A program made the translations under genes and the position numbers. 64,000 nucleotides of DNA from a virus, in the IMG/VR virus record IMGVR_UViG_3300002052_000002, positions 48,901-112,900 of that record; one strand, 5' to 3'. Positions 44,160 to 59,898 of the stretch are shown in pieces; the first letter of the stretch is position 1, and every line of letters begins with the position of its first letter. Under the pieces are notes generated by a model, which was not told where the DNA came from, did not search any database, and saw only the letters and a program-made list of their open reading frames with translations.

Positions 44160-44289
44160 TAAGTCCTCCTTCAAGATTTATTATAATCCTTCCATAGGCT
44201 AAAGAATCCATCAGAATTTGTACTTTATCAATATTCCAATCATCATCGACTCTGGCATTGACAAATTCTTTTAAATGACGTCCTTTCAT
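43990..44289 (-). CDS. Hypothetical protein overlapping the LysM gene
   Basis: ATGA-coupled to the nuclease gene; 170-nt overlap with the next gene. Confidence 0.4.
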   Translation of the reverse strand: MKGRHLKEFVNARVDDDWNIDKVQILMDSLAYGRIIINLEGGLNEDMEQEREYRAVRGGGLAPAPDNVFPEPHWEVRPGRAQEPRTRVYAAEGGTAAAR

Positions 44290-45266
44290 TGTCTAACCTC
44301 CCTTAGAACTTTGATTGCCTTTTGCTTATCAATAGCGGTCGTAGTCCCCTCGATAAATCTTTCTACTGTATCCCACAAATCCTCGTTCTCTTTCTCTTCT
44401 AATCTAGCCTCACGAGTAGGGGCAAATTCGTAGGAGACTTGAACCCTATGATTCAAAGCTGGCACTTTCACTTCTGGTGAAGTAACTTTCAATCTATAAT
44501 AATCAGTATTCTTCTCAAAGAATTCTAATAGTGTTTCCAATTCTTCTTGAGTAGATACTGTTGCTTCTTTGAATTTTGGTGATTGTATTTGTATAAATCT
44601 GGATTTACCATCTTCGAAAATTGTGACTCCCCTATCCAATATATCCTCTCCAAATTGATTAGCCATCACAGATCCTATATACATTGCTTCTGTAGCTCCA
44701 TATATTTTTACCAATTGTCTAGTATGGAAGTGCCCTAGATAAATATACTTATAGCCGAAAAGACTTTCTGGGGGAGTTCCATCTACATGAGTCCTAGTAA
44801 AATCCGCATTTACATACGCACCATTTAATCCGATATGGCCTAGCAGGATATCATTCTTCACTTTTGGAATCGGACAATCCCAGGGCACCATATCAATCCC
44901 ATTATCTAATTGTGTAGTATTTTCATATAGATATACATTCTTAATATCATCAAAGTTAGCCAGTATAGTTAACTTTCTAAACTGGTCATGATTACCAACT
45001 AACATATGTACTGGACATGCTTCTGCTAAATTATTAACTACCAAGTATGCCGCGTTATAAATTATCTTAGGAATACTTTCAGTTAGCCCATGCAATAAAT
45101 CCCCTAGAAAATATATAGCTTCTACTTTTTCCTTCCTAGCAACTTCAGCTACTTTATTTATTACCATGAGTTGTTCTAGAAGTCTAGTATTCATTCCATT
45201 CTCATTAACAGTAGAGAACTGGGTATATGTGGATAAATGGAGATCTGTAAATAATAGTATTTTCAT
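44286..45266 (-). CDS. SbcD/Mre11/gp47-like nuclease
   Basis: TDLH, LGDL, GNHD, GHFH metallophosphoesterase motifs; near the SbcC gene. Confidence 0.88.
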   Translation of the reverse strand: MKILLFTDLHLSTYTQFSTVNENGMNTRLLEQLMVINKVAEVARKEKVEAIYFLGDLLHGLTESIPKIIYNAAYLVVNNLAEACPVHMLVGNHDQFRKLTILANFDDIKNVYLYENTTQLDNGIDMVPWDCPIPKVKNDILLGHIGLNGAYVNADFTRTHVDGTPPESLFGYKYIYLGHFHTRQLVKIYGATEAMYIGSVMANQFGEDILDRGVTIFEDGKSRFIQIQSPKFKEATVSTQEELETLLEFFEKNTDYYRLKVTSPEVKVPALNHRVQVSYEFAPTREARLEEKENEDLWDTVERFIEGTTTAIDKQKAIKVLREVRQ

Positions 45267-45442
45267 GTCGTCTCTGGTACAAACTCTGCTAAAATATCAT
45301 TTGGATTATCTACCGGAATTACTTCCCCAGGCAAAACCTCTATAATTTTAAATAGAAATTCTCCTTCATGTTCTCTTTCATGATCCCTAACTAGTATTTT
45401 TCTGGAAATTCCAGATGGATAATCATGTTTGAGGATTTTCAT
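45263..45442 (-). CDS. Micro-protein starting MKILKHD
   Basis: GGTGG RBS before ATG 45442; fills the gap to the nuclease gene. Confidence 0.55.
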   Translation of the reverse strand: MKILKHDYPSGISRKILVRDHEREHEGEFLFKIIEVLPGEVIPVDNPNDILAEFVPETT

Positions 45443-45623
45443 GATATGTTGCCACCAATCTATATGGCCTCCAATTTGTTCCGTCTGTAGGATATATGGT
45501 CCATCCACCATTATTAATGCCACCATAATAATAAGTCACGGTACCTGTTGAATTGTTTATCATTTCCAGGATATTTACTTTCTTATTTTCTTCTTCCTCA
45601 TGTTTATGTTTCAATATTTTCAT
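45423..45623 (-). CDS. Micro-protein starting MKILKHKHEEEE
   Basis: ATG lies 4 nt after the recA stop. Confidence 0.55.
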   Translation of the reverse strand: MKILKHKHEEEENKKVNILEMINNSTGTVTYYYGGINNGGWTIYPTDGTNWRPYRLVATYHENPQT

Positions 45624-45627
45624 ATTT

Positions 45628-46635
45628 TCACATATAGAAATATGGTTTGGAAAACCTCTCATCCTCCAGGATTTCTGGATGTTCTGCTAGAATCTTATAA
45701 AAATCTTTAGCGTAAAAAGAGATATCCCCATATTTATTCCAGGCTCCAGACGTAGTTATGATTCCCAAATCGATAGCTATATCTAATAATCCACTATAGG
45801 GATCTAGGCCACGTGACCAAGTCAATTCCATTTCACACTCTCCAAATGGAGGAGCACAGGAATTCTTAGCTACTCGTACTCTAAGGGTAACTCCTATTGG
45901 CCTGTTCTTTTTCTCCAATAGGATAGGAGTAGTTTTCAACAACTCTAGCCTCACTGTGGAATGGAACTTAGAGCCTCGTCCTCCTGGAGTATCTGGCTTA
46001 AATCCACCTGGGCTATCAATAATATGGTTTGCCAACATCATTATTGATTGTGTATCAGCAACAAGTCCAGGTAGAATACGCATAGCCTGTTTAATCTTCT
46101 GAGCCCTACGTCCTTGATCCGCTTTCATGTCTCCCTCTTCTACATCGCCAATTTCTTTAATGGTAGAAGCGGCGGCGATGCTATCAAGAGCAATTAAAAG
46201 TTTTCTTTTCTTCCCAATGTCATTTAGAAGTTCATAGGAAGCAACAGTAAAATCCTCTACTGTGGGGGGATGGAATAGAATTAGATTATCATTGTTCACT
46301 CCATGTATGGCTCCGAAAGTCTTATCGTATCTCCGCTCTACATCTGCTAGAGCGAAGATTCCACCCATCTTCTGCATTTCAGCTCCAGCCTTGAGAATTA
46401 GTAAGGTTTTTCCAGTAGATGGATCCCCAAATAATTCGCAGATTTGTCCGCTAGGATAACCACCTGTACCATCTACTCTCATGCTCATAACATAATCCAA
46501 AGCTAAATTACCACTATGCAGAAACCATTGGTTTGGAGGGGCCAGTATCCCCATAGTTTCTCGAAAATTCTGTACTATCGCCTCTACAGATTCTTCTGTA
46601 ATTGGTTCACTCGTCGTTTTCTTCTGGCGCGCCAT
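45628..46635 (-). CDS. recA: RecA/UvsX-like recombinase
   Basis: SGN.ALD, ELFGDPSTGKT, LDSIAA, TPGG...KFHSTVRL, KN..APPF. Confidence 0.9.
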   Translation of the reverse strand: MARQKKTTSEPITEESVEAIVQNFRETMGILAPPNQWFLHSGNLALDYVMSMRVDGTGGYPSGQICELFGDPSTGKTLLILKAGAEMQKMGGIFALADVERRYDKTFGAIHGVNNDNLILFHPPTVEDFTVASYELLNDIGKKRKLLIALDSIAAASTIKEIGDVEEGDMKADQGRRAQKIKQAMRILPGLVADTQSIMMLANHIIDSPGGFKPDTPGGRGSKFHSTVRLELLKTTPILLEKKNRPIGVTLRVRVAKNSCAPPFGECEMELTWSRGLDPYSGLLDIAIDLGIITTSGAWNKYGDISFYAKDFYKILAEHPEILEDERFSKPYFYM

Positions 46636-47005
46636 ATACTATCAATCTCCTTTTAGCGTCAAAAAGTATATCCTTCATGATTCTATTCACTATCATGTTC
46701 GGATTATTTGTCTCTACAGCTCTAAGACTGCAATATTTTACCCATCTATTTTCACAATCTTGTGCTGAAGCAACTATGATTTCTGCCGCACATTTACCTC
46801 TATGTTTACAATTTATGCAAATACAAGCATGACTTGCCTCTTGTTGCGACGGACAAGGAAAAAGGCAAGCTGGTTGGCTTGCCTTAGTTTTGTCTAATAA
46901 ATCTAGTGCTTCATGCAAAGCTTTCAATCTAACTTCTTCCCTATCTTTCTTTCTCTTCCAAAAAGCAAGTAAAGAAAATAGTTTTGAAAGGCTCATAATT
47001 ACCAT
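46607..47005 (-). CDS. Cys-rich hypothetical protein
   Basis: CxCxxCxxxxxC motif; operon packing. Confidence 0.45.
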   Translation of the reverse strand: MVIMSLSKLFSLLAFWKRKKDREEVRLKALHEALDLLDKTKASQPACLFPCPSQQEASHACICINCKHRGKCAAEIIVASAQDCENRWVKYCSLRAVETNNPNMIVNRIMKDILFDAKRRLIVYGAPEENDE

Positions 47006-47541
47006 CCTCGCGGATCAGCTCTATAATTGGCCGCATGGTCAATGTCTATCATCTGTTTCAGAATCATACCAGCAATTTCCTCTGCATCACACCTGTTATA
47101 AATATACATTCCCATCAGAGGAAACATTCCAAAAAACGGGATAGCCAGAAAGACCTGATAATACCCAATCTCTCTTTCAAAGTTATAACCAAATTCTATC
47201 ATAACTCCGCCCATGCCGTCTGAACTGAAAAATCCATTACTAACAATCATAACTTGATCCTGCGGCATATAGATAGAACTTAGATATTTAGTCTTGTCAG
47301 AAGTTATAGCTGAGTAGGTGTAGAAATTATATTCTGATAAATAATTACTTTTAGGGTAAGATAAGACGGCATTAAGATTTCCTTCTTTCTCACAATAGTA
47401 TCCCTCCTCAACCATCCATTGTGGCACTGGACTTCCATACTTATCCTTGACTGTTGGATGGAATCCCCCAGCCAATACTGGAGCGGCGAGAAGCCCAAGT
47501 GTTAATACTGCAATTGCTAAAATCTTCAACAACTTCTTCAT
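46999..47541 (-). CDS. Secreted hypothetical protein
   Basis: Signal peptide MKKLLKILAIAVLTLGLLAAPVLA. Confidence 0.55.
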   Translation of the reverse strand: MKKLLKILAIAVLTLGLLAAPVLAGGFHPTVKDKYGSPVPQWMVEEGYYCEKEGNLNAVLSYPKSNYLSEYNFYTYSAITSDKTKYLSSIYMPQDQVMIVSNGFFSSDGMGGVMIEFGYNFEREIGYYQVFLAIPFFGMFPLMGMYIYNRCDAEEIAGMILKQMIDIDHAANYRADPRGW

Positions 47542-47870
47542 ATTAAGTTCTCCTTTTCTAATAGATTTGACAAAAATTCAAACTGTTTTGGTCTATTTTT
47601 CTTAAGCCATAAGGTAAATACAAACCCATTATAATGAGCTTTACGCTTATGGCACTTGAAGGGACAAAGAGAAATCCCATTGTTTACTTCAAACATGAAT
47701 TGTGGATAGATATCCTTTGGAAGGATATGGTGTGCATTGAGTCGTGGATTTGCCTCTCCACAGAATGCACATACCCATTCATCTCGTTCTCTAACTGCCA
47801 AAGACCATGCTTTTAGAAGCTTATTCCTTCGGCTTTTTTCTGGATTTCGTTTGCGCCTCTTTCGTTTCAT
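47538..47870 (-). CDS. HNH endonuclease
   Basis: VRERD..CAFCG, AHHI, NGISLC..CH. Confidence 0.85.
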   Translation of the reverse strand: MKRKRRKRNPEKSRRNKLLKAWSLAVRERDEWVCAFCGEANPRLNAHHILPKDIYPQFMFEVNNGISLCPFKCHKRKAHYNGFVFTLWLKKNRPKQFEFLSNLLEKENLI

Positions 47871-48156
47871 ACGATTTCATTTTCTTTAGAATACTTATTC
47901 CATAAATAGAGGATACTGGACATGATAATACATTTCCAACCATATTACCAATGTCACTCTTTTCTTGAGCAAAGAAGAAATGTCCTCTATGTACTTTTAA
48001 TGCATATCCTGCTGATCTTTGACTATTAGCAAAATCGACATCCACATCATATTTTATATCATTTTCATGAATCCAGCCATTAAATTGTCTACAAGAATCT
48101 GTCCACAATACTTCAATAAGATCATGATGATTAATCGTCTTGTCCAATATCTTCAT
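47821..48156 (-). CDS. Hypothetical phage protein (V.W.DS...GW type), starting MKILDK
   Basis: AGGAG RBS before ATG 48156. Confidence 0.5.
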   Translation of the reverse strand: MKILDKTINHHDLIEVLWTDSCRQFNGWIHENDIKYDVDVDFANSQRSAGYALKVHRGHFFFAQEKSDIGNMVGNVLSCPVSSIYGISILKKMKSYETKEAQTKSRKKPKE

Positions 48157-48313
48157 CAGACTTCTCCTTCTTTCGTTTCTGATATTCTCGATACGCCTTT
48201 CTATTTTCTTTGACAAGATCTTTTTCAGCTTTTTCAAGATCTTTGAGTCGTCTTTTCCATTTCTTTACTGCATCATCAGAGTAAAAAGAATGACCCTTAT
48301 CCAAATCTTTCAT
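48131..48313 (-). CDS. Small basic coiled-coil protein
   Basis: ATGA coupling to the exonuclease gene. Confidence 0.45.
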   Translation of the reverse strand: MKDLDKGHSFYSDDAVKKWKRRLKDLEKAEKDLVKENRKAYREYQKRKKEKSDEDIGQDD

Positions 48314-48975
48314 ATAGAATTATCAGTTTTTCTAGTAAAACCCATAAGAGCATTGTATACTCTTTCTAGTTCTATAACATCTCTTCGACAATGATCACTC
48401 AAATATTCTAATGATTCTTTATCGCCCATAAGAGCTTTTATCCAATACTTAGGTTCAATCCTAGTTTTTTCTGTAGCACCAAACAATGTCCTACATACAT
48501 TATCTAATCTTTTAGAACTCATACATAGACGACCACGAGCGGCAAAATAAACATCATTATGAAGTAATTCTCCGAATCCTGGAAATGGAACTCCCAATGA
48601 TATAGCTCGTGTTCTTAGAAATGGAATATCAAATCGACTTCCGTAATAAGTAATAACTCTATCAAAATTCTTTAAATCTTTTACACACTGTTCAATCACT
48701 CGCTTATCTAAGCAAGTACGGAGATCACGTGGAGTAATTGTGCGTTCATAAATTTTATCTTCATCTTTTATTTTAATGCAATATGTCAAAACGATGCCAA
48801 AATCAGCATCCAAATTTGAACATTCAATATCTAGAAAGCCAATTCTTTCAGTATCTGGATGTTCCCTAAGCCAACACTGATAATGACTTAATCCAGTTTC
48901 TCCATGTTTACATCTCCAATTATTCATCTTAATAAGCTCTGATTTCTTAATCCTAGCTATATTTGGTCTAGCCAT
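48310..48975 (-). CDS. DEDD / RNase H-like 3'-5' exonuclease
   Basis: FLDIE, TYYG.RFDIPFL, HC..DV. Confidence 0.8.
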   Translation of the reverse strand: MARPNIARIKKSELIKMNNWRCKHGETGLSHYQCWLREHPDTERIGFLDIECSNLDADFGIVLTYCIKIKDEDKIYERTITPRDLRTCLDKRVIEQCVKDLKNFDRVITYYGSRFDIPFLRTRAISLGVPFPGFGELLHNDVYFAARGRLCMSSKRLDNVCRTLFGATEKTRIEPKYWIKALMGDKESLEYLSDHCRRDVIELERVYNALMGFTRKTDNSI

Positions 48976-48988
48976 TAGACATTCCTCC

Positions 48989-49990
48989 TTATTTGCTTAG
49001 CCTTCTTGCAGCGGCTCGTTTCTCTTTATCTGCCTTAGCGCCAGACATCATTCTACATGGGCCTGCCCATCCATCTTCAATACATTGTCCAGTACATCGT
49101 TCTGCTTGCGATCCATAACTACCAAAACAATCTGGATATGCACTAGTACCAGTAAAATCTCCAGTACCAAACTTATCTACTTTCTTTGGTTCTTTCTTAG
49201 GAGCAGGTGGAACTTCCTCTTCATATTCTTCTGGAATTAAATTAGACCACGCAGTTATAGTATCCATGTCACCATCAGAAGCAGTGGGATGCATAACTGG
49301 TGATTCTTTAACTGTAGCAAATGGATTCATATCGCCAGCTTGGATAGCATTAAATTCCTCTTCTGTCACGCCATAGTGGTAGTTAACAGGAAAGAAAAAC
49401 ATATTTGATTTTGGTCCCAGCCACGAAGGCAAGACTCTAACTTCTGTTCTTCCTGCTTCTAATTTTGCCTGTGCCGAAACCTTAACTTCTCCGCTTTTCA
49501 TTAAAGCGAGGATATTATCCAGTGGTACTAAATGTTTAAGTACACCAAGATCAGGGAGAGTAGAAGCTGACATAGAAGGCTCCACATCATAATCAGCCCT
49601 ATCTCGTGAAGCACCAGGAGTCTTCTTTACAAAAAGATTTCGTCCTTTCATTGGATCCATAAAGACTTTTAATTCCGCCTGTCCTGTAGGATCCATATGA
49701 AATCCAGCTAGTTTTTTGAAGATCTTATCTCCATATTCAAATACTACAACTTGTGACGGATTGATGGCAGGGAATATAATATTTGAATAGTATTTGTGTT
49801 TCTGGTTAAGGTTCTGAGCTTTCTCATAAAGCTTTGTCCCTTTCAATGAACGGTCTTTCAAAATCTCGAAAGCAAGTTCGCATAGCTTACAAGGCTTATC
49901 AAAAGTAGTAGGGCATATAACTGGAGGGATTCCTCCGCCTTGCTTCAATACTCTTTTATAAGTATCCATTAATTTCTTATCGTAATCCAT
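48989..49990 (-). CDS. gp32-like single-stranded DNA-binding protein, apparently circularly permuted
   Basis: CP...CxxCE, YYSNI, FEYG, DP..GRN; VRVLP...HYG lies downstream; acidic region. Confidence 0.7.
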   Translation of the reverse strand: MDYDKKLMDTYKRVLKQGGGIPPVICPTTFDKPCKLCELAFEILKDRSLKGTKLYEKAQNLNQKHKYYSNIIFPAINPSQVVVFEYGDKIFKKLAGFHMDPTGQAELKVFMDPMKGRNLFVKKTPGASRDRADYDVEPSMSASTLPDLGVLKHLVPLDNILALMKSGEVKVSAQAKLEAGRTEVRVLPSWLGPKSNMFFFPVNYHYGVTEEEFNAIQAGDMNPFATVKESPVMHPTASDGDMDTITAWSNLIPEEYEEEVPPAPKKEPKKVDKFGTGDFTGTSAYPDCFGSYGSQAERCTGQCIEDGWAGPCRMMSGAKADKEKRAAARRLSK

Positions 49991-49991
49991 A

Positions 49992-50528
49992 TTATTCCTC
50001 CTTTTCGGCCTCTTGCTCTTCAGCAGGTGCCTCTACTTCACGCTTAGTTCTTCGTTTTCTTGTCTTTTCTCTTTCTTTAATTTCGTCTTTGAACGCTTTT
50101 ACTGTAGTGAATTCGTTTACTTGTACATCGCTCTGATTTCGGTATAGTTCCAATAGTACGTTGAATTTTTCTTTGAATGCGTCTTTAGCCACATTAAGCA
50201 TATCTTCCATGTACTCAGCCTTAATAAGCTCTTTCTGAGCCTCGTGATATGCTGGATGCTCCGCAAGATAATCATTAATCATCTTCTCAGTTACTCGTAA
50301 TCCAGGATTCTCTGCGGCCATTTCCATTCGGAATCCCTTAGTTAGCTCCGCCTCAATCTGGCGAGTGGCTAATTTTTGCATCCTTCTTTTTCTAGCGGAT
50401 AAAGCCCAAGCCATACTCCAATAAAAGAATAAAGACGGTTGCCTAAGCAATTCGTCTTCTAGCTTGGTTTCATCAATTTGCAGGGCATCGCTAATCTGCC
50501 CCTCTGACGTTCTCTTTTCGTCGGTCAT
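49992..50528 (-). CDS. UvsY-like recombination mediator
   Basis: LQIDE..L..EL..QP..F..W; K/RVTE..I; adjacent to the SSB. Confidence 0.6.
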   Translation of the reverse strand: MTDEKRTSEGQISDALQIDETKLEDELLRQPSLFFYWSMAWALSARKRRMQKLATRQIEAELTKGFRMEMAAENPGLRVTEKMINDYLAEHPAYHEAQKELIKAEYMEDMLNVAKDAFKEKFNVLLELYRNQSDVQVNEFTTVKAFKDEIKEREKTRKRRTKREVEAPAEEQEAEKEE

Positions 50529-50546
50529 AGCTTCCTCGACCTCCTT

Positions 50547-50795
50547 TTAATCTATTCGTTTGGGTGCTCCGTTATACTCCATACAAGCTACCGCTAAGGC
50601 GGCAATTTTACGGACAGAATCCAGAGCTTCTACGTCGTATCCAATTCGTCCTTTGGCTTCCTCAACATATCTCTCCATGAAGATTAGCCAATCTCCAATC
50701 GACCACTCGGAATCATTAAATTGTGATCCCCATTTCTTATCTTGGTAGTCTCTTTCACCATCAATAGCTTCGTAAACTTCTAATCTATTTATCAT
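50547..50795 (-). CDS. MazG-like all-alpha NTP pyrophosphatase-like protein
   Basis: ER.YQD.KWG, W......VEEA, KIAALAVACME. Confidence 0.55.
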   Translation of the reverse strand: MINRLEVYEAIDGERDYQDKKWGSQFNDSEWSIGDWLIFMERYVEEAKGRIGYDVEALDSVRKIAALAVACMEYNGAPKRID

Positions 50796-50813
50796 CCTTT
50801 TATCCTCCTATTA

Positions 50814-50853
50814 TATATATAACATTACGAGCTGAAAAATGCTGTAATTTCCG
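50814..50853 (-). promoter_or_regulatory. Promoter-like motif, copy 2 (CGGAAATTAC-N22-TATATATA)
   Basis: Intergenic, followed by an AGGAGG RBS; matches 30381-30420. Confidence 0.65.
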
Positions 50854-50859
50854 ACATGA

Positions 50860-51021
50860 TTATTGTTTTTCTTCTTGTGATTCCCATTTACTATTATTAG
50901 TTACAGTGTTGACAATAAGTACATCCTCTCGTGGCATATAACAACTTATATCCTCTGTAGGAGTCCTGAATATTCCCCATGTCCACGCTATGCACTTGAC
51001 TTTCTTTATAGGTTCCTGCAT
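50860..51021 (-). CDS. 53-aa hypothetical protein (MQEPIKKVKC...), absent from the ORF track
   Basis: AAGGAG RBS; fills the gap. Confidence 0.45.
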   Translation of the reverse strand: MQEPIKKVKCIAWTWGIFRTPTEDISCYMPREDVLIVNTVTNNSKWESQEEKQ

Positions 51022-51030
51022 ACTAACTCC

Positions 51031-51396
51031 TTATGTGAAATACATTGTCTTTTTGTCACTTTCATCTTTAGGAATCCACTCATCCGCAGTAGCCCCAGGC
51101 ATCCCTGGTACTGGTACATCTTTTCTTCTCACATAATCCTTTAATTCTGAAGACATATGTGGTTTATCTGCCAATGCTCCAGGCCTACAATCTCTTAGCT
51201 CTTCTAACGGAGGTGTAGGATCTGGAAGAGATTTAAGAATATCATCAGAGTTCATGCGGAAATTCGAGACAGATATGATCTTCTGGATCTCTGTAGATTC
51301 ACACACCTTACATTCAGTACATTCCTCATCGGACCTAATCTTTAGAAACTCGAACTTACTCCCACAAGTTTTGCATTCGTATTCATAAATAGGCAT
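51031..51396 (-). CDS. FmdB-family zinc-ribbon protein
   Basis: MPIYEYECxxCG..FE...CxxC. Confidence 0.8.
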   Translation of the reverse strand: MPIYEYECKTCGSKFEFLKIRSDEECTECKVCESTEIQKIISVSNFRMNSDDILKSLPDPTPPLEELRDCRPGALADKPHMSSELKDYVRRKDVPVPGMPGATADEWIPKDESDKKTMYFT

Positions 51397-51406
51397 GATA
51401 TTCTCC

Positions 51407-51781
51407 TTACTTATAGTCGATTACATGATTTTTAAGTATATCTCCATTGAGAAATACAATTTCTATTTCTATTACCACATCTTTTATTGTGGAATTACGA
51501 ATATATATTTTCTCAATCGGAGATGGTATTGGATAGGACACTGCCCACACAGAGCCAAATATATCTATCCATCTAAATTGTAAATTGTATGGATAATGCG
51601 CTGAAGGAAAGATGTGTTTAATATCTCCCCTTTCTACTGTAGTTCTATGATAGTCATTCATATAAACTTTTACTTGGTATAGGGACGTATTATCTATACT
51701 CATTGATGTATAAGAGCCATTGCATCCATTAAGAAATAGACTGCCCACAAATATGGTTAAAGCTATTAGAAATTTCTTCAT
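51407..51781 (-). CDS. Putative lipoprotein
   Basis: MKKFLIALTIFVGSLFLNGC lipobox. Confidence 0.6.
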   Translation of the reverse strand: MKKFLIALTIFVGSLFLNGCNGSYTSMSIDNTSLYQVKVYMNDYHRTTVERGDIKHIFPSAHYPYNLQFRWIDIFGSVWAVSYPIPSPIEKIYIRNSTIKDVVIEIEIVFLNGDILKNHVIDYK

Positions 51782-51782
51782 A

Positions 51783-51920
51783 TTAATCACCAAATCCTTT
51801 TCCATCGTCCTGTCGAAACATGCAACCAAAACAAGCTGGCTTATCGTTAATAGTTCCGACGATATAGGAATCCTCATCTCCACAACATTCACACTTGCCC
51901 ATATAAGTTTTCTTTTCCAT
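51783..51920 (-). CDS. 45-aa zinc-finger peptide, absent from the ORF track
   Basis: GGAGGAGG RBS; MEKKTYMGKCECCG...CFGC. Confidence 0.55.
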   Translation of the reverse strand: MEKKTYMGKCECCGDEDSYIVGTINDKPACFGCMFRQDDGKGFGD

Positions 51921-51932
51921 AAATCCTCCTCC

Positions 51933-52520
51933 TTAATGAAAATGTCCTACTACATGAGCTTTTGGATTGTTCATGCATACCGTACATTTCTCACCACATC
52001 CTTGATCGCCCGCACTGGATGGACATAAATATTCATCATGAAATGGAAACTCATCCCCTGTTATAGCACGATTGGTAGCCCTATTCCAATCAATTCTGTA
52101 GTCCCATTTACTGCCGAAGCTCTGGAGAATATTGAAATTATCGGGCTTCTTACTCCAAAGATCCAAATGAAATGATTTAGTAAATGCAAAGAACTTCTTC
52201 TTAGGAAGTTTCCTAGCTATCTCATACCACTTATTCAGGTACCTCTGGTTGTAGAAGTCTCCACTCTCATGGACTCTGATATATGGCTCCTTTCTTTTAG
52301 AGAGGTAGTCTACAACCCTGTCTACAAAGTCAGCTTGTTTGGTCAGCTCAAGATTCTTTTCTCTGAATGGCACGGTCTGTTTGTACATGCGTTCTATCTT
52401 AATTTCATAACACCACTTCCTGCATGCTCCTGCACCTGGACAAGTAGTTAATCTAGGTAAGTTCCATATGAGAATTTTAGGGGATAGCTTTCTATTCCCT
52501 TTTGAAAATCTGTCATTCAT
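51933..52520 (-). CDS. GP88-family (radical-SAM-like) phage protein
   Basis: GN.KL, LP...TCPG..C...CY, RVHESGDFY, AFTKS. Confidence 0.75.
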   Translation of the reverse strand: MNDRFSKGNRKLSPKILIWNLPRLTTCPGAGACRKWCYEIKIERMYKQTVPFREKNLELTKQADFVDRVVDYLSKRKEPYIRVHESGDFYNQRYLNKWYEIARKLPKKKFFAFTKSFHLDLWSKKPDNFNILQSFGSKWDYRIDWNRATNRAITGDEFPFHDEYLCPSSAGDQGCGEKCTVCMNNPKAHVVGHFH

Positions 52521-52523
52521 TTC

Positions 52524-52856
52524 TTATCTCCTATCATCATACTCTTTATACCTCTCATAGTTTAATGCATAATGTAATAATGCTAGGGCATTCCAAGCGA
52601 CATGTGCTAGATGATGGCATCCAAAATCTTCTTCGTTGATATCTCTTTTGTGCCACCACCATTTCATCAGATGGGACATTAGTGCACGGAAAACCCTATG
52701 GAATTTGATTCCCTTTGCCCAATTCCAATCATCATATTTTTGTGCACCGCTTGTATAGACTTTAACAGTCTCCTCTAAAGCATCGAATGGGATAAGATCC
52801 CACCGTAGTTTGCCCTCATCATATTTCGTTCCTTCTTTCAATTTCTCATCTGTCAT
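52524..52856 (-). CDS. dATP/dGTP diphosphohydrolase-domain protein (DUF5664-like)
   Basis: G.KYD.GKLRWDLIP, GA.KY..WNW.KG, HLAH.AWN. Confidence 0.82.
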   Translation of the reverse strand: MTDEKLKEGTKYDEGKLRWDLIPFDALEETVKVYTSGAQKYDDWNWAKGIKFHRVFRALMSHLMKWWWHKRDINEEDFGCHHLAHVAWNALALLHYALNYERYKEYDDRR

Positions 52857-52865
52857 ACTGCCTCC

Positions 52866-53120
52866 TTACCATAATGGATATCCGTTTTTCCATACCCATA
52901 TATAAAATCCATAAATATTAACTAGTGAAAATACTACCCATATAGTAATCTGCCCATACATTCTTTTATCCTTATTAAAGAGAATCAAAGCTGTCCAACA
53001 AGCATTCCCAAATGTCCAGATAAAAAAGCATGATGCGAGATTGTATATATTTAATATGCATCCAACAGTAGAGATAGCGGATATCAACCAAGGTGCATAT
53101 TTAATTAAAAAGTTCTTCAT
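52866..53120 (-). CDS. Half-size PnuC-like membrane protein
   Basis: 3 TM helices; F.IW..GN..W and NIYGFY.W motifs. Confidence 0.55.
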   Translation of the reverse strand: MKNFLIKYAPWLISAISTVGCILNIYNLASCFFIWTFGNACWTALILFNKDKRMYGQITIWVVFSLVNIYGFYIWVWKNGYPLW

Positions 53121-53272
53121 TTCTTTCTCCTTTTATCTCTCCAATCAAATTGGCTTTTCATCTTACTCGTCATCACTACCCATACAGCTATAATAGCAAT
53201 CCCCATAAATATTAATGAACCCAACGGTACTCCAACAATTTCTTGTCGAAGCCATAAAAGAATGTTTAACAT
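53117..53272 (-). CDS. Small membrane protein
   Basis: TAATG-coupled start MLNILLW; one TM helix. Confidence 0.45.
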   Translation of the reverse strand: MLNILLWLRQEIVGVPLGSLIFMGIAIIAVWVVMTSKMKSQFDWRDKRRKK

Positions 53273-53649
53273 TATTTTATATCTCCATTCTCTTTTCGTT
53301 TCTTTAATTCGTATGGCATAACGTAAAGATTGAAGAAGACTTGCCAAGCCAACTTATAGGCCATACGATCCTGCTCTTTCATATGATATAGTACTTTTGG
53401 CTGGCGCGGTCCAAATTGGCAAAGATACCTATTCTCTACAACTGGTTCGGTATCTCTCTCCATTGTAGTGTATATTTCATGAGCTGTCGTCCATCTTGGA
53501 TTTTCCTTCCAGATGTCTACCATTTGTTTATAGTAAAAGTAGCATCTATCTCCTGGTTGAATTCCATTAAAAGTAGATAGCATAGTATCTAATACCTGTA
53601 ATCCTAACTTATCAATTGCTTTGCGTCTGTCTTCTTTTATGAATGGCAT
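53272..53649 (-). CDS. Conserved phage hypothetical protein
   Basis: MPFIK..RR, PGD..Y, PYE..K..ENGD. Confidence 0.55.
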   Translation of the reverse strand: MPFIKEDRRKAIDKLGLQVLDTMLSTFNGIQPGDRCYFYYKQMVDIWKENPRWTTAHEIYTTMERDTEPVVENRYLCQFGPRQPKVLYHMKEQDRMAYKLAWQVFFNLYVMPYELKKRKENGDIK

Positions 53650-53816
53650 TTTCTCTCCTCCTCATATGCAAGACAACATTCTTTTGAACAGAAATAGGTA
53701 TTCCCCTTTTTATAAATAAGGGCCTCTGTCACATCGTAATTTACTCCGCAATGATTGCATACACATTTTATAGGTACATGAAATTCCGACCATTCAATGG
53801 CTTTAACTTCTAACAT
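53637..53816 (-). CDS. TRASH-like metal-binding small protein
   Basis: CNHCG...YFCSKEC; AAGGAG RBS. Confidence 0.5.
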   Translation of the reverse strand: MLEVKAIEWSEFHVPIKCVCNHCGVNYDVTEALIYKKGNTYFCSKECCLAYEEERKCHS

Positions 53817-54247
53817 TTTATTACTCCTTTCAAGAATTCTGTAAACTCGTCCCATGATCCAAACATCATACCACCAGATGCTTCTACAATAAATCTTATC
53901 CAAGGATGCATCTGACAATCGGAAGAAACTATATATACTGGTTTATGTGCTTGCATGGCACAGAACCAAATTTCACAGATAGTTCCTATTTGATGAGTCT
54001 GTTTAGTAACCAATGCGACAACTCCATCTGCGTACATAATTTGACCGATATCTTTACCAACTATAGTGGCAGGATCAATATCAGCAGAGTTCCTAGTCTT
54101 TTCTCCTCTATCTATAGCTTCGATATCATCTCTTCCTGTATCATAGAATGGATTGATGAGTTCTACTCCAGTAGTCTCTTCTATAGATTTTTCGATACTA
54201 CGAATCTCATGTCGCATTTCCAATGGATGTGCTAAATATAACTTCAT
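53810..54247 (-). CDS. Nucleoside 2-deoxyribosyltransferase-like protein
   Basis: LYLAHP, INPF, D...I..ADGVVA, GTICE, KPV. Confidence 0.7.
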   Translation of the reverse strand: MKLYLAHPLEMRHEIRSIEKSIEETTGVELINPFYDTGRDDIEAIDRGEKTRNSADIDPATIVGKDIGQIMYADGVVALVTKQTHQIGTICEIWFCAMQAHKPVYIVSSDCQMHPWIRFIVEASGGMMFGSWDEFTEFLKGVIKC

Positions 54248-54256
54248 TTTGCCTCC

Positions 54257-54637
54257 TTATAGGCTAGTGTCTAAATACCTCATTAGCTTTGTAAAGCTTT
54301 TTCCTTTCATATCATCAGGGAAACTTTCTTTATTTACAAAGATGAATCTTTTCTCGTTAGGCCGTAACTGTTGTAACATAAAGAACATGCCTAAATCAAA
54401 TATGCTTCCTAATGAAGTTCGACTAAACCAGATATGAATTTCATCGGCACTTCTCATAGCTCTAGCATTTGATGCGCAGATGCCAATGCCTATTGGATCA
54501 GTTTGATCTGTATCTCTAATAGGCCAATAGACTACGTTTCCTTCTTTCTCCATTTTAGTGACATACTCTTTTACATTATCCATGTCTTCCTCCGTTATGT
54601 CTCTAACAGGTGAGATTAAAAATATATTCATTTCCAT
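54257..54637 (-). CDS. Nucleoside 2-deoxyribosyltransferase-like protein, second copy
   Basis: IFLISPVR, VYWP.RDT.Q, ADE..IW...S.GS.FDLGM. Confidence 0.6.
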   Translation of the reverse strand: MEMNIFLISPVRDITEEDMDNVKEYVTKMEKEGNVVYWPIRDTDQTDPIGIGICASNARAMRSADEIHIWFSRTSLGSIFDLGMFFMLQQLRPNEKRFIFVNKESFPDDMKGKSFTKLMRYLDTSL

Positions 54638-57048
54638 TCCTCCATATTTCCTAGACTTGTGCCGTATTTGGCATCAACTAGAATAGGTATTGAAACTTTG
54701 AGAAATTTCTGAAAATAAGAAGTCATAATCTTTATTATTATTGGAACAATCCATATCTCAGTCTGGTGAACTGATAGAATGACGGAGTCGTGAATCTCCA
54801 ATAACAATTTAGATCTGAGTTTAAACTTTTCAAGAAACTCTTTAATCCCAATGAGAGATACCAATAGGAAATCTGAAGCTAGACTTTGTATTGGAGCATT
54901 AATCGCTTCACGAATCATCGCCTGAACTGTTTCACTGTTGGGATCAGTATACTTCCATACAGGCAATCTCCTATATCTACCAAGTGGAGAACGAACCCAT
55001 CCTTGTGTAAGAATTAGATTCTTCGTATTCTCCATATATTCCGCCAACTTAGGATAAGTCTCAAAGAATTTAGCTAAATATTCATCGGCCTCCTCCTCAG
55101 TACAATTTATCTTCTTCATCAGGCCCCATTTGGTCTGCCCATAAATCGTACCGAAATTAACTGTCTTACCTATAATTCGTCTTTGATCATCTGTAACTTG
55201 ATCTTCTAGAATTCCTAGAATACCAGCAGTAGTTTTACGATGAACATCCCCTTTCAATGCCTCTTTAAGAATCTCATCTTCAGCTATCTCCGCCGCAAGT
55301 CGAAGCTCTATCTGATTAAAATCAAATTCGACGAGGAAATGTTCTGGGTCTGCGATAACTGCATTACGTATCTTAATTAAATCTTTCTTACCCTTTGGCA
55401 GATTCTGAAGATTCGGCTTACGGCTTGAGGTTCTCCCTGTTGCTGTCTCCGTCAACCAATATGTAGTATGAATTCTACCATCATCAGCCACAGCCTCAGT
55501 GAATTCTTTCAATGTTTTAGAGCGCATGGTCTGCCATTGAGAATATTTGATAAGTAGTTCACAAAGAGGACTCTTATCTTTTAATTTATCTAAAACATCT
55601 AAATCAGTAGATGGTTCTCTAGAAGTAGGAGTCCGTTTTAGGATTGGCAGACTTTCATATTTAAATAGAACTTCACGAAGTTGGACATGGGAATTAGGAT
55701 TGAATTCTATATCATTATCAGTCTCATATTGCCTAACTGAAGGATAACTTCGGATTTCTTCTTCAAGTTCTTCTAGTATCCCAATTGTCTCATCCGTTCC
55801 ATCTATTTTGTCGATGGCTTCCTGTACTAAATCCTGGTCTATAAGGATTCCCCTTTCTTCCATTTCGGACAAGACTATAGATACAGGGAGTAGAACTCCA
55901 GAAAAGAGAGCATATAGCTGCTGATCAGCAGCAAGTTTTTGATACTGTGCTTTATAAATTCTATACGTAATATCAGAATCTACCGCATTGTACTCATATA
56001 ATTCATCCCCTTCTACTTTATCTACTTTATCTTTAAGTTGTGTTTCGTACCCTCCACACTTTGTATATTTCCATGCTAAATCTTTCAACCCATTAGATTC
56101 GTTCTCATTTAGTAAAAACTGAGCGATTTTAGTATCCCAATAAAGTCCAATGGTTTGTATACCTAATATATGCCTAACCCATAGGATATCGAACTTAGCA
56201 TTCTGAGCTATCTTTTTGATATCAGGGGCTTCGAATATGATACGCAGGTCATCTAGAATTCCATTCCATTCGTCTTCTTTCCAAGGATTGAATTCTCCAT
56301 AATCTGTTGGAAGCACAGCAGCTTTTTTGTGTGCCCATGAGAATCCTATACATTTTACTTGTGAATCATATTGGAATGGCGATAATCCTGTAGTCTCTAC
56401 ATCGAAAGCGAATTCTTTAGTATTTATTATATTAGCAAGAATATTAGTCCAAGTATCTATATCTCTTATAACCGTGTACTCACCAAGGTCAGATGGGTCT
56501 GTAAGATTACCAGTGAGAGCATTTGGAATTCTTGCCATGTGTTCAAAGAAAGTTCCTTGCTCGTCTTGGTGACGTAAGATATAGGCTGGATGGAGGATGG
56601 GTAGAACTAGTCTCCCATCTATTTCCATAGTCTTGCCAGAATACTTTACTATCCCACTCTTTATGCCTGTTACGGCATGGAGTGGAACATTGCCCAATAA
56701 TACTATCAGTTTAAGATTGGGCATATTAGTTATTTCTTCTTCTAAGAATGGACGGCATGTTTTGATCTCTTTTGTAGTAGGAGTCCGATTCTTAGGAGGA
56801 CGACATTTTACTGCGTTAGTAATTGCATAATTCTCAATATGAGTATTATAAATAGCTTCTCTTAATAAAATACCAGCGTCCCCAATAAAAGGACGTCCTT
56901 CGTCGTCTTCATCAACTCCAGGGGCTTCTCCTACAAAAAGGATCTCTGCATTTAAATCACCCTCCATCCCCATATGTGCGGTTTTGCATCCCTTACATAA
57001 GATGCAATCTACTCCGCACTCCAATTGTTTTGTCAGTTTAGGTGTCAT
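54628..57048 (-). CDS. Family A DNA polymerase with an N-terminal family-4 uracil-DNA glycosylase domain and 3'-5' exonuclease
   Basis: UDG: VGEAPG, GRPF.G.AG, KCRPP.NR.P, HPAY.LR. Exo: DVETTG, NAKFD, Y...D. Pol: DFNQIELR, R...K.VNFG.IYG, IHDS. Confidence 0.93.
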   Translation of the reverse strand: MTPKLTKQLECGVDCILCKGCKTAHMGMEGDLNAEILFVGEAPGVDEDDEGRPFIGDAGILLREAIYNTHIENYAITNAVKCRPPKNRTPTTKEIKTCRPFLEEEITNMPNLKLIVLLGNVPLHAVTGIKSGIVKYSGKTMEIDGRLVLPILHPAYILRHQDEQGTFFEHMARIPNALTGNLTDPSDLGEYTVIRDIDTWTNILANIINTKEFAFDVETTGLSPFQYDSQVKCIGFSWAHKKAAVLPTDYGEFNPWKEDEWNGILDDLRIIFEAPDIKKIAQNAKFDILWVRHILGIQTIGLYWDTKIAQFLLNENESNGLKDLAWKYTKCGGYETQLKDKVDKVEGDELYEYNAVDSDITYRIYKAQYQKLAADQQLYALFSGVLLPVSIVLSEMEERGILIDQDLVQEAIDKIDGTDETIGILEELEEEIRSYPSVRQYETDNDIEFNPNSHVQLREVLFKYESLPILKRTPTSREPSTDLDVLDKLKDKSPLCELLIKYSQWQTMRSKTLKEFTEAVADDGRIHTTYWLTETATGRTSSRKPNLQNLPKGKKDLIKIRNAVIADPEHFLVEFDFNQIELRLAAEIAEDEILKEALKGDVHRKTTAGILGILEDQVTDDQRRIIGKTVNFGTIYGQTKWGLMKKINCTEEEADEYLAKFFETYPKLAEYMENTKNLILTQGWVRSPLGRYRRLPVWKYTDPNSETVQAMIREAINAPIQSLASDFLLVSLIGIKEFLEKFKLRSKLLLEIHDSVILSVHQTEIWIVPIIIKIMTSYFQKFLKVSIPILVDAKYGTSLGNMEEWK

Positions 57049-57058
57049 AATGAGATCC

Positions 57059-57508
57059 TTATTTCTTTAAAATTCTACGTCTTATCTCCCTCCATTTATT
57101 GGAATCGAGTCCTAATAAATCTTTGATATTTGCTATAGATTCTCCTTTCTTCAGCATCTGAATAATATGAGCATCAGAGCCGAACTTGGTTTTAGCCGTA
57201 GTTTCTAATTCCAAGTCATCAAGAACAATCTCTTCCATCTCATAGGCTGCTATATCCTCTGGAAGTTCTTCGATAGAAGTCTCTTTGCGCCTAATAAGTC
57301 TAAGCTTCCTCTCCATATTAGAATAGAACCAGTTTATAGATTTCAAAACTTGAAGCAATTCTGCATCTGGGAAATCTATTTTAAATTCAAAAACATGGAG
57401 ATAGCCATCATTCACTAAATCATTATACGGAATACTATAACGTCGATTTAATAATTTCGCTCTAGAATTAATGGCCTTTTCTATTTCTTTATGCATTATT
57501 TGTTTCAT
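57059..57508 (-). CDS. Divergent sigma70/ECF-like sigma factor
   Basis: 149 aa; region 2-like YNDLVNDGYL; region 4 HTH-like GESIANIKDLLGL....EIRRRILKK. Confidence 0.55.
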   Translation of the reverse strand: MKQIMHKEIEKAINSRAKLLNRRYSIPYNDLVNDGYLHVFEFKIDFPDAELLQVLKSINWFYSNMERKLRLIRRKETSIEELPEDIAAYEMEEIVLDDLELETTAKTKFGSDAHIIQMLKKGESIANIKDLLGLDSNKWREIRRRILKK

Positions 57509-57704
57509 CTAAATACCTTTTTATAACATCTCTAACCATTTCACGTTCAAATTCCGCCCAAAATCCTCTACGGACCTCTGTCCCAAATTGTCGTCGTACC
57601 AGTTCCGTAGCAGTTATACGTCCTGTCGTAGTACCCCAATCAGCACCTAGTTTAGTAGATTCAATATCAATGAAGTTATCTTCATCTTGTTTCAGTATTT
57701 TCAT
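57489..57704 (-). CDS. Micro-protein starting MKILKQD
   Basis: GGTGGAG RBS. Confidence 0.55.
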   Translation of the reverse strand: MKILKQDEDNFIDIESTKLGADWGTTTGRITATELVRRQFGTEVRRGFWAEFEREMVRDVIKRYLDETNNA

Positions 57705-57867
57705 CTCTCCACCAATTATGTCTCCGTTGCATTTCTAGACGCCATCGCTGTTCTAATATTCTTTCTAATGTATCTTGTCCTGCTATCTTTTCATATATAA
57801 GATCTGCAAAATCTTTTTGTGGACTAAGCTCTGGTTTTTCTTCCTCTTTGTGTTTTAGAATTTTCAT
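57682..57867 (-). CDS. Micro-protein starting MKILKHKEEE
   Basis: TAATG-coupled to the primase-helicase stop. Confidence 0.55.
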   Translation of the reverse strand: MKILKHKEEEKPELSPQKDFADLIYEKIAGQDTLERILEQRWRLEMQRRHNWWRDENTETR

Positions 57868-59591
57868 TAATCTTCCTCGAATCTGCACTGTGCATCTTTG
57901 GCTACTAAGAAACAATCTCCACCTTTATCCCATCTAGCCTTGTCAATTCTGACAAGAGTTCGTGGCATAAAGATTCCTTCAGTTGTCCTATTATCCTTTT
58001 CCACATCTTTCACTTTCTCTCTATGGAGAAGGATAATGAAATCTGAATCACCTTCTATATCTGCACTCCAAGCCAAGTCTTCAGAGTCAATGACGGCATT
58101 CTTTCCCATCTTCCTAGGACGAGCAATGGCTAGAATTGTTATTGCCAGTTCTTCTGCTAATAGCTTAAGATTATTAATCATTAATGAAACTTCTCTAGTT
58201 GGGTCATCTCCTCTTGATAAAAAGTGTATATTATCAAATACGATAAAACGTAGGCCATAGCGTTTAGCACACATTCGGATTGTGTCTTCCACTATTTGCC
58301 AATTCAGTTTGCGATACTTGTAAGCAAAATATAGTGGATAATCCTTTATTCGCTGATAAGCGGCGGCTAAGTCCTTCATATTGTTGACTAGCTTCGAGTC
58401 TTTATTTAAAATGTGACCTATTAATCTAGGGACTAAACGCTCTGGCCTCATTTCTAATTCAAATATTAAAGATGGATACCCCTTACTAGCATAATAATAT
58501 AGGAAGTTTAAAGCCATCATGGTCTTCCCAACTCCTGGTTTCGCCCCTAATACTACTAAATCTCCTGGTGCAAACTTACCAGTAAGTCTTTCTATTCTCT
58601 TCCACGGAAGAGTTAATCCACTTTCTTCTTCATCATCCAAATATAAACTCTTCATTAAGTCGCCCATTATAGCCGCAATGGATTTGACATCCTCCACATC
58701 GAATGGACGAGCTTGCTTCTTAAAAGCCAGAAAATCATTTAATGTGCCTCCTTTCATGAAGAATTCATTCAAGTCTTTAACAGTCGGAGGAAGGTCTATA
58801 TTGAAGCACCGTTCGAGTCCCAAACGGTCAGCAAATTTGTAGGCTCCTTTAGTTCCAGCAATGTCCCTATCATATACGAAATATACTCGTGGTATTCTAT
58901 CGAGTTTATCAATCCAAGTTGTTTCAACGCCTCCAGCCCCGACAGTTGCTCCAACCACGTTTTTGTATCCCATAGACCATAGAGATATTGCATCCGACTC
59001 TCCCTCTGTAATAACAATTTCATCCAACTTCTCCTTTAAGATGTCCTCATTAAAGAGTAGGGATTTACCACCTTTTATTCTTCTAAAAGATTTATCGGCA
59101 GGGGGTATGGAACGAAACTTAATATTATGCAATTTCCCTTCCCTAAAATAAGGGAAGCCTACCCACTTTATTCCATTATCCTCCCATAGCCCTAGCACAA
59201 AATTAGATATAGCTTCTCTACTAAACTTCCGCCCAAAGAGATATTTAAGAGCATCGACATTATTAAGTAAATATCTATGCGCCTCTATTGATTGAGGAAA
59301 ATATTCTTTATGAATAACCAGTTCGCCATCCTCTTCCTCTTTATACAATTCCCTAACTGAGGTTAGAGGAAGAATATCTCCTAAATATTTCTTCAGTGTA
59401 TACATAGAGCCTGATTGGCTACAAGCTCCATGATGACAGATATACTGTCCAGTTTTCGAATTGATATAGAAGTGGTAGTCAGTATTACGACAGAATGGGC
59501 AGACCTCTATATTCAGCTCTGGCCCATTATCACTGTCTACTACTCTATACTTCCATTGTTTCTTCTCTACATATTCTTGAACGTCATCCAT
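57867..59591 (-). CDS. Primase-helicase (T7 gp4/Twinkle-like: Zn finger, TOPRIM, DnaB/SF4)
   Basis: CPFC...CH..C, ITEGE.DA, YDRD.AG, Walker A GAKPGVGKT, IVFDN, KAR. Confidence 0.92.
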   Translation of the reverse strand: MDDVQEYVEKKQWKYRVVDSDNGPELNIEVCPFCRNTDYHFYINSKTGQYICHHGACSQSGSMYTLKKYLGDILPLTSVRELYKEEEDGELVIHKEYFPQSIEAHRYLLNNVDALKYLFGRKFSREAISNFVLGLWEDNGIKWVGFPYFREGKLHNIKFRSIPPADKSFRRIKGGKSLLFNEDILKEKLDEIVITEGESDAISLWSMGYKNVVGATVGAGGVETTWIDKLDRIPRVYFVYDRDIAGTKGAYKFADRLGLERCFNIDLPPTVKDLNEFFMKGGTLNDFLAFKKQARPFDVEDVKSIAAIMGDLMKSLYLDDEEESGLTLPWKRIERLTGKFAPGDLVVLGAKPGVGKTMMALNFLYYYASKGYPSLIFELEMRPERLVPRLIGHILNKDSKLVNNMKDLAAAYQRIKDYPLYFAYKYRKLNWQIVEDTIRMCAKRYGLRFIVFDNIHFLSRGDDPTREVSLMINNLKLLAEELAITILAIARPRKMGKNAVIDSEDLAWSADIEGDSDFIILLHREKVKDVEKDNRTTEGIFMPRTLVRIDKARWDKGGDCFLVAKDAQCRFEED

Positions 59592-59595
59592 TTAA

Positions 59596-59898
59596 TCACT
59601 CATCCTCTAATTTTACGAAGTATTCAAATAAACTATCCTTTCCCCAAGACCAACAATCTACGCCATATTTATCAAATGGGCCTGAAATATGGCATCGTCC
59701 TGGACAATCTAGTGGCCCACCTTGACTACATGATTTTCTGGAGCGAGCAGTTTTACCACTACAATCTGCTATATATAAGATTTCATATATTTCTCCAGGC
59801 TCCCCTGGATAGGTTGCCATGTACCTGTTTCGTTCATGGTTATCAATCCTATATGCTCTTCTAATAACATATTCTTTGACCTGTTGTAAGATTTTCAT
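59596..59898 (-). CDS. Cys-rich hypothetical protein starting MKILQQ
   Basis: GGAG RBS before ATG 59898. Confidence 0.5.
   Translation of the reverse strand: MKILQQVKEYVIRRAYRIDNHERNRYMATYPGEPGEIYEILYIADCSGKTARSRKSCSQGGPLDCPGRCHISGPFDKYGVDCWSWGKDSLFEYFVKLEDE

Follow-up and report, generated by a model that had tools for sequence, protein, structure and literature searches.

Why should small proteins with nothing else in common begin with the same residues? The question is raised by four genes in a stretch of 64,000 nucleotides (the window), the right-hand part of G000, a single virus contig of 112.9 kb (IMG/VR record IMGVR_UViG_3300002052_000002). Their products start with MKILK and are encoded in two tandem pairs, each of which had been noticed directly after the gene for a RecA-fold ATPase. 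The original prediction took the common start to be either an N-terminal address tag on variable small effectors or a conserved translational-coupling module at points of cassette exchange. We favour the first of these: with a probability of about 0.55, the residues form a short N-terminal docking or address tag on accessory proteins that is read by a co-evolving partner.

The first pair lies downstream of a RecA/UvsX-like recombinase gene (45628..46635, minus strand, as are all genes in this paragraph), which is itself untagged and was assigned using Pfam and PHROG. A1 (45423..45623, 66 residues) begins MKILKHKHEEEE, and its ATG at 45623 sits 4 nucleotides (nt) past the stop of the recA-like gene. 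A2 (45263..45442, 59 residues) begins MKILKHD with an ATG at 45442 and overlaps A1 by 20 nt; its start is less certain. The second pair follows a Toprim-DnaB primase-helicase gene (57867..59591; Pfam, PHROG), likewise untagged, the stop of which is overlapped by the ATG of B1 at 57867 in the sequence TAATG. B1 (57682..57867, 61 residues) begins MKILKHKEEEK and is overlapped over 23 nt by B2 (57489..57704, 71 residues), which begins MKILKQD with an ATG at 57704. The MKIL start is the earliest start codon in the open reading frame of B2 and is thus unambiguous. In-frame upstream candidates exist for A1, A2 and B1, and for A2 one of these was chosen by our gene caller; for these three genes the MKIL start is the putative one, preferred only through analogy with the family.

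Scans of Pfam and PHROG returned no family for A1, A2, B1 or B2, and A1 has no homologue in any relative locus compared. Past residue 7 the local-alignment z-scores of the four proteins against shuffled sequences range from −0.9 to +0.8, as expected of unrelated sequences, and BLASTP found no similarity among the four bodies. With no likeness past residue 7, duplication of a two-gene cassette is ruled out as the origin of the two pairs. The Ile-Leu codons differ throughout, being ATA TTG in A1, ATC CTC in A2, ATT CTA in B1 and ATA CTG in B2. Coordinates, codons and unrelated bodies are all as first described. The order seen in both pairs, a 'K-EEE' type followed by a 'D' type, does not stand as a feature of its own: it stems from gene overlap, because the codons CAT GAT or GAT GAA at the start of the second gene supply the TGA stop of the first.

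The four starts are part of a much larger set. A six-frame search of the whole contig, which holds about 200 genes, found M-K-I-L encoded at 20 places. Of these, 17–18 can be credited as gene starts: a Shine-Dalgarno-like sequence precedes them, and the frame is open only briefly, or not at all, farther upstream. Sixteen fall within a module of replication and nucleotide-metabolism genes that occupies the minus strand from about 41,400 in the window and runs over the contig ends to about 14,300 in genome numbering; the plus strand of the window carries genes for the virion, glycan synthesis and lysis. Between genome positions 3,818 and 7,137, seven of eight consecutive genes are tagged. The set includes two starts that had been listed as weaker echoes, namely those of a 111-residue ORFan (orphan open reading frame) without Pfam or PHROG family (MKILDK; 47821..48156, minus strand) and of a 100-residue protein (MKILQQ; 59596..59898, minus strand). 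The ten tagged proteins outside the window have no family either, and g6817/g7137 is the sole paralogous pair among the tagged genes of this genome; the similarity past the first residues that would mark a paralogous family is confined to this pair and is absent from the four micro-proteins (z < 1). The view of the tag as a feature of variable, mutually dissimilar small proteins is therefore upheld. Two genes with MKIL starts were placed outside the set on the basis of six-frame and orthologue comparison: an SbcD-like nuclease (MKILLF; 44286..45266, minus strand), orthologues of which begin MILLF or MFLLF, and a conserved late-region protein of 757 residues (MKILWF; 36398..38671, plus strand). 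In both, the first residues are an ordinary hydrophobic first β-strand that is also present in untagged orthologues. No tag was found on any of the approximately 75 small ORFans of the early arm (genome 14.6–36 kb), on any virion gene, the highly expressed ones included, or on the conserved core enzymes. The position directly after a RecA-fold ATPase is real for the two pairs, but it describes a subset of a wider pattern, and a special link to such ATPases is contradicted by 12 further tagged genes elsewhere in the genome. In relatives, tagged genes never follow recA and only sometimes follow the helicase.

The excess of these starts was judged against a null obtained by permuting residues inside each N-terminal column, which keeps the enrichment of K, I and L at each position. 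The best triple, K-I-L at positions 2–4, occurs in 17 genes, whereas the 200 permutations average 3.7 and never exceed 7, so that the proposed check against a shuffled background comes out in favour of the motif. None of the 466 genes of relatives and none of 1321 background phage genes (1787 in total, called with the same caller) begins MKIL. A general bias of AT-rich starts is ruled out by the permutation test together with these control genes. When IMG/VR was scanned for DNA encoding MKILK[NH]K, no locus matched more than once.

Relatives were found through homologues of the primase-helicase (80 IMG/VR loci and 80 metagenome loci), and six complete or near-complete ones were taken whole. 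Megablast and single-protein scans of phages and IMG/VR revealed no close relative of G000, and the nearest cultured phages, Tunturiibacter phages, have a helicase identity of 27–29%. Several of the more distant relatives carry different shared starts, placed on ORFans of their own within the replication module. These dialects read M[EQD]xSxN in G001 (23 of 169 genes), M[PS]LEILxNK in G002 (13 of 187), MKTFxH in L002 (four of 23), MLIE[LF]IxNK in G003 (two genes only), M[KR]P[VI][KE]N in L128, L135, L160, L169 and L176, M[RK]K[LI][KQ]H in L109, MKFFKH in L114 and MK[LV][LF][KR][NH] in L001. The tagged share of all genes is 7–15%, and some small paralogue groups occur among the tagged genes of relatives. 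The permutation test gives 13 genes with E.S.N in G001 (null at most 6) and 13 with L..L.N in G002 (null at most 5), and is flat for G003, three complete outgroup genomes, 14 partial relatives and phiEco32. When aligned on the conserved polar residue, the dialects reduce to [K/E]-x-hydrophobic-x-[N/H]-(K), with two additional residues at the front in G002 and G003. The conserved positions alternate (2, 4 and 6), which may correspond to one face of an extended strand.

In a tree calculated from the 179 C-terminal residues of the helicase, the tag-bearing genomes form one clade (support 99/97) with the untagged outgroups outside it. Within this clade the dialects coincide with subclades: G000 groups with L107 (KIL; 100/99), L002 with L114 (K[TF]FxH; 100/99) and G002 with G003 (LEILxN; 98/94), and four KPVKN contigs are monophyletic. 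The system has therefore been inherited and has diverged gradually rather than being copied in recently. In a nested subclade, comprising L111, L113 and L116 with their neighbours, the 12–22 kb covered are free of tags, which suggests loss. The tag-bearing group is a clade of uncultured phages of about 100–113 kb with a Kuravirus-like layout, and its contigs come from groundwater and sediment samples. It conserves about 50 core proteins, among them two of unassigned function (178 and 192 residues), a gp32-like SSB, the helicase, the portal protein and a 366-residue protein encoded at the scaffold position.

What is conserved at these starts is the peptide. Synonymous codon use in the G000 tags matches that of the genome for the Lys, Ile and Leu codons (p = 0.83, 0.55, 0.07 and 0.83), in line with the proposal that the codon differences reflect selection on the protein and not recent duplication. 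In G000 the motif KIL[KEDQSH][HNQ] stands at the N-terminus of 12 proteins and is absent from the 35,269 residues elsewhere, and for the tag motifs of three genomes (about 32–35 thousand residues each) the N-terminal and internal counts are 12/0, 22/1 and 12/0. The conserved Ser of the G001 tag is encoded 13 times by AGT or AGC and 10 times by TCN; since both codon families are used, only amino-acid selection fits. The tag is held by selection at the level of the peptide. The codon statistics rule out a DNA or RNA repeat at the starts, and the conserved RNA-level coupling module of the original prediction finds no support, with wobble positions following genome usage and Ser drawn from both AGY and TCN. 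Conservation of nucleotides around the start, as in an RNA operator or coupling element of the RegA type, is not seen.

Orthologues illustrate how the tag follows the genome rather than the protein. In three shared families the bodies align, while the first residues follow the dialect of their own genome. The zinc-ribbon orthologues begin MKIILNK (G000), METSKNK (G001) and MSLDFIKNK (G002); the MKILQQ protein at 59898 of the window has an orthologue in L002 that begins MKTFTHV; and MSLEMLEN in G002 corresponds to MLIELIKN in G003. The zinc-ribbon family carries a double CxxC motif (G000 member at L103:13819-14259, minus strand; homologues P0122-P0180), and a profile search with it returned about 55 metagenomic homologues; the family is widespread in metagenomes. 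Starts of the form M-x(2-4)-hydrophobic-x-N/H are found in 44 of 55 members, compared with 7% of control genes. The first CxxC lies 2–71 residues from the start; given so varied a distance, the tag is an add-on joined through a linker of no fixed length. For the G000 member AlphaFold gives a confident model (predicted local distance difference test score, pLDDT, of 84) in which residues 1–17 are coil. The fold that matches it best is that of the anti-CRISPR AcrVIA2, with a weak score (E = 7e-3). A word-indexed search gave no homologues of the zinc-ribbon or MKILQQ family, those of the zinc ribbon coming from the full hidden Markov model scan alone, and in the locus search of IMG/VR for the zinc-ribbon family the pattern was either too degenerate or matched G002 alone.

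The closest relative examined, L107, has a helicase 71% identical to that of G000 and keeps the MKIL dialect. Nucleotide homology between the two breaks at the helicase stop codon. The slot from there to the next conserved gene holds B1 and B2 in G000 and, in L107, a 100-residue and a 91-residue open reading frame, the latter beginning MKILQNK. The 91-residue protein has no relation to B1 or B2 and is homologous to the product of another tagged gene of G000, g13618 (MKILKQK; E = 3e-9), which lies about 20 kb away in circular order. The proposed search for the same tag with swapped bodies is thus answered by the helicase slot of L107, where MKIL stands on a different body, and the idea of cassette-exchange points gains from the presence of one tagged family in different slots of two genomes. 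From this comparison, the dialect is stable at a distance of 71% identity while tagged genes come, go and switch slots.

Tagged genes also tend to overlap their neighbours. An overlap with the upstream gene of at least 8 nt is present for 44% of the tagged G000 genes versus 13% of the untagged ones, and the stop of the upstream gene comes from the tag codons AAT AAA, CAT AAA or CAT GAT. Unrelated upstream proteins share the out-of-frame C-termini xENTE or xENPQT at such sites (45423-45445 and 57682-57707 in the window, minus strand; 3799-3818 and 7118-7137 in L103). These common C-termini arise because the upstream genes end inside the next tag, and do not represent a second tag.

In the mechanism that we propose, each MKILK start would be one instance of a linear motif, 6–8 residues long, at the N-terminus. 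Its general form would be M-[K/R/E/Q]-x-hydrophobic-x-[N/H/Q]-(K), and a linker that varies in length would come after it. The motif would be borne by many small, fast-turnover accessory proteins encoded among replication and nucleotide-metabolism genes. One common partner would grip the extended N-terminus, probably reading every second residue (2, 4 and 6) on a single face of a strand, and would handle every tagged protein alike. A role as an address or docking signal is suggested by five features together: selection acts on the peptide, the position is strictly N-terminal, the linker varies, the bearers are confined to accessory ORFans of a single module, and the tag is uniform throughout a genome but has dialects specific to each clade. 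In our view the partner is more likely to be phage-encoded and co-evolving than to be a conserved host machine, given dialects that track the phage tree and go as far as a reversal of charge (K...K versus E...E). As to where such an address might lead, recruitment to a phage complex of the replication (middle) phase can be put forward tentatively, timed degradation appears unlikely and loading into the virion more unlikely still. We would also offer, as a speculation with rather less than an even chance of being right, a heritable address code in which a receptor encoded by the phage reads an N-terminal strand of 6–8 residues and routes roughly a tenth of the proteome, namely the products of fast-evolving accessory genes, to a single shared fate, with tag and receptor co-evolving so that every subclade acquires a dialect of its own. 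If so, a gene arriving from another dialect would have to be re-tagged, and this would create functional barriers to exchange between related phages.

Several points weigh against an address function. No partner was found among the candidates considered. The tag is short and, like efficient starts, rich in A. The tagged genes of G000 also have weaker Shine-Dalgarno pairing than the others (−5.9 versus −8.7 kcal/mol, p = 0.002), a difference that is absent in G001 and G002, and a role in translation therefore keeps some likelihood. Gene starts were called with a simple, purpose-written and crude caller, and of the three relatives nearest by helicase identity (71%, 69% and 63%) the comparison covers the first. 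Finally, the nested subclade and G003, with few or no tags, indicate that the system is dispensable.

Should the address function hold, dozens of ORFans per genome would be marked as clients of a single pathway, and one reader would give them a common context. The tag could explain how freshly captured genes plug into the phage programme, the pattern of dialects would amount to a natural experiment in motif-receptor co-evolution, and a portable tag of 6–8 residues with a matching receptor would be a compact tool for sorting or recruitment.

Among the other explanations, optimization of translation starts survives best, although we consider it improbable. The peptide would arise as a side effect of a 5' coding sequence that favours translation, or would help, as a nascent peptide, the initiation or early elongation of weakly initiated, translationally coupled small genes. 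The fraction of A in codons 2–8 is indeed higher in tagged genes (0.52 versus 0.43, p = 4e-5), codon 2 of G001 over-uses GAA, and the weaker Shine-Dalgarno pairing and frequent upstream overlaps in G000 point the same way. Against this, the pairing difference does not recur in G001 or G002, wobble positions are otherwise free and Ser is drawn from two codon families. At the conserved hydrophobic position the codons are those of Leu, Val, Phe and Pro, none of them rich in A, and the peptides of related phages are quite different. Neither the capsid and portal genes, which are the most highly expressed, nor the early-arm ORFans are tagged, and the 1787 other phage genes without a MKIL start are hard to reconcile with a general device. 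If the tag were a translation device all the same, nascent-peptide identity, and not mRNA sequence, would be what is tunable in each lineage.

Somewhat less credible is a footprint of cassette exchange, in which genes are captured behind, or move with, a resident start segment consisting of the Shine-Dalgarno sequence, the ATG and the first codons. The differing contents of slots between core genes in close relatives, the end of homology at the helicase stop and the tagged family that occupies different slots in two genomes all agree with this. Upstream genes that read into the tag and take their stop from AAT AAA or CAT GAT are likewise expected of junctions at the ATG. Purifying selection on the peptide would nevertheless still be needed, with synonymous sites randomized and amino acids invariant, and neither the different dialects on orthologues nor the lack of a conserved DNA repeat at the starts is explained. 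Such exchange is a possible mechanism of spread beside a function of the tag and offers no alternative to it.

The nearest described precedent is found in phage T4, where the internal proteins IPI, IPII and IPIII and Alt share an N-terminal capsid-targeting sequence (CTS). The CTS ends in (L/I)-x-E, where the gp21 protease cuts, and is borne by late proteins associated with the head. Literature searches for an equivalent of the present tag led only to papers on the T4 CTS. It too is a short N-terminal peptide on otherwise unrelated small hypervariable phage proteins, and it is an address read by phage machinery. By analogy, the tag might direct small proteins into the prohead, to be injected later, and a head protease might remove it; to this explanation we give little credence. 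The design does resemble that of the T4 internal proteins, with a shared leader, unrelated bodies of 40–180 residues and hypervariable loci; I-L-E or I-S-E is present in some tags, and the weak match of one tagged family to the anti-CRISPR AcrVIA2 points the same way. The invariant residue, however, is N or H, whereas the cleavage rule calls for Glu; it is preceded by K, E, D, Q, S, T or P, with Glu in a minority of tags. No prohead protease family was detected with PHROGs and Pfam among 18 head-region proteins, a set that leaves out one gene, with a product of 527 residues, at the edge of the window. The head module has the order portal, a 105-residue gene product, an unannotated 366-residue one at the scaffold position and major capsid protein, as in phiEco32. 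The tagged genes, by contrast, lie in the replication module, outside the late module, and unlike the CTS the tag marks 7–15% of genes.

Least probable is an N-terminal degron that would deliver the accessory proteins to a host or phage protease, through a ClpXP-type signal or an N-degron exposed by trimming, so that they act briefly. The N-terminal signals recognized by ClpX are host-defined and loosely conserved, and include the classes Met-basic-hydrophobic-hydrophobic and polar-T/hydrophobic-hydrophobic-basic-hydrophobic; that of λ O contains K-I-L-N and, like the tag, places basic and hydrophobic N-terminal residues on a phage replication-module protein. The G000 dialect resembles the first class, and unfoldases need a geometry of this kind, in which an unstructured stretch of varying length comes after the tag. 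By these class definitions the G000, KPVKN and RKLKH dialects fit partly, and the acidic ones of G001 and G002 (M-E-x-S-x-N and P-L-E-I-L-E-N) do not. The tag also differs from ClpX signals in being sharply uniform in each genome, in varying between related phages up to charge reversal and in its presence on dozens of ORFans. Pfam scans turned up no protease or adaptor gene, and dialects that track the phage phylogeny would require a host switch at every node.

For the docking tag that we prefer, one functional parallel lies in replication hubs. Clamp-binding peptides of the QLxLF type, PIP boxes and the clients of the SSB tail are short, often terminal motifs on a flexible linker that serve one hub, and they show how one short peptide lets unrelated proteins bind a single partner, which is the role proposed here. 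Sequence, extreme N-terminal position and dialect behaviour set the tag apart from them. Polymerase and helicase in the phages of the clade form a T7-like set, and a gene for a clamp was not seen.

Some other features of these genomes deserve mention. A class-II glutamine amidotransferase, two COOH-NH2 ligases of the phiEco32 type (PF14395) and a RimK-like ATP-grasp protein are encoded in a cluster among the tagged ORFans (L103:7282-13319 and L103:15602-16873, in the same genome but outside the window), and phiEco32 has the same kind of cluster (gp80-86) adjoining its primase-helicase gene. This cluster was rejected as the reader of the tag, also in the form of a leader like those of ribosomally synthesized and post-translationally modified peptides, in view of phiEco32, which has the cluster and no tag, and of G003, which has three PF14395 genes and almost no tags. 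Two GNAT acetyltransferases and an AstE/AspA-like zinc carboxypeptidase are encoded in the early/left arms (L104:10741-11199, minus strand; L104:16881-17315 and L104:19254-19979, plus strand). None of them is conserved in relatives, and the GNATs were discarded as readers for this reason. Profiling of gene presence and absence was uninformative in the same respect, since the outgroups share only 4–5 replication genes with the clade.

The adaptor protein encoded at 7756-8475 of the window (plus strand) matches the SU10 adaptor family. Because of this match and the order of portal, 105-residue, 366-residue and capsid genes, the virion module appears to be near the Kuravirus (phiEco32/SU10) type, in a genome about 35 kb larger. 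In two relatives, G002 (L091-L096) and G003 (L097-L102), core replication genes are much longer than those of G000, with a helicase of 902 and a polymerase of 1138 residues in the former and a RecA of 725–771 residues in the latter. One helicase homologue bears a Hint-associated domain, and the overlong genes probably carry inteins. A short span of the minus strand of the window (51933-54247) encodes a GP88-family protein, a protein with a MazZ-like dATP/dGTP diphosphohydrolase N-domain, a DUF6899 protein and a nucleoside 2-deoxyribosyltransferase, and this grouping hints at altered nucleotide pools or modified DNA. The family-A DNA polymerase encoded at 54628-57048 (minus strand, 806 residues) has about 185 N-terminal residues that are absent from its 609-residue orthologue in G003, and to the eye this extension resembles the motif of a family-4 uracil-DNA glycosylase.

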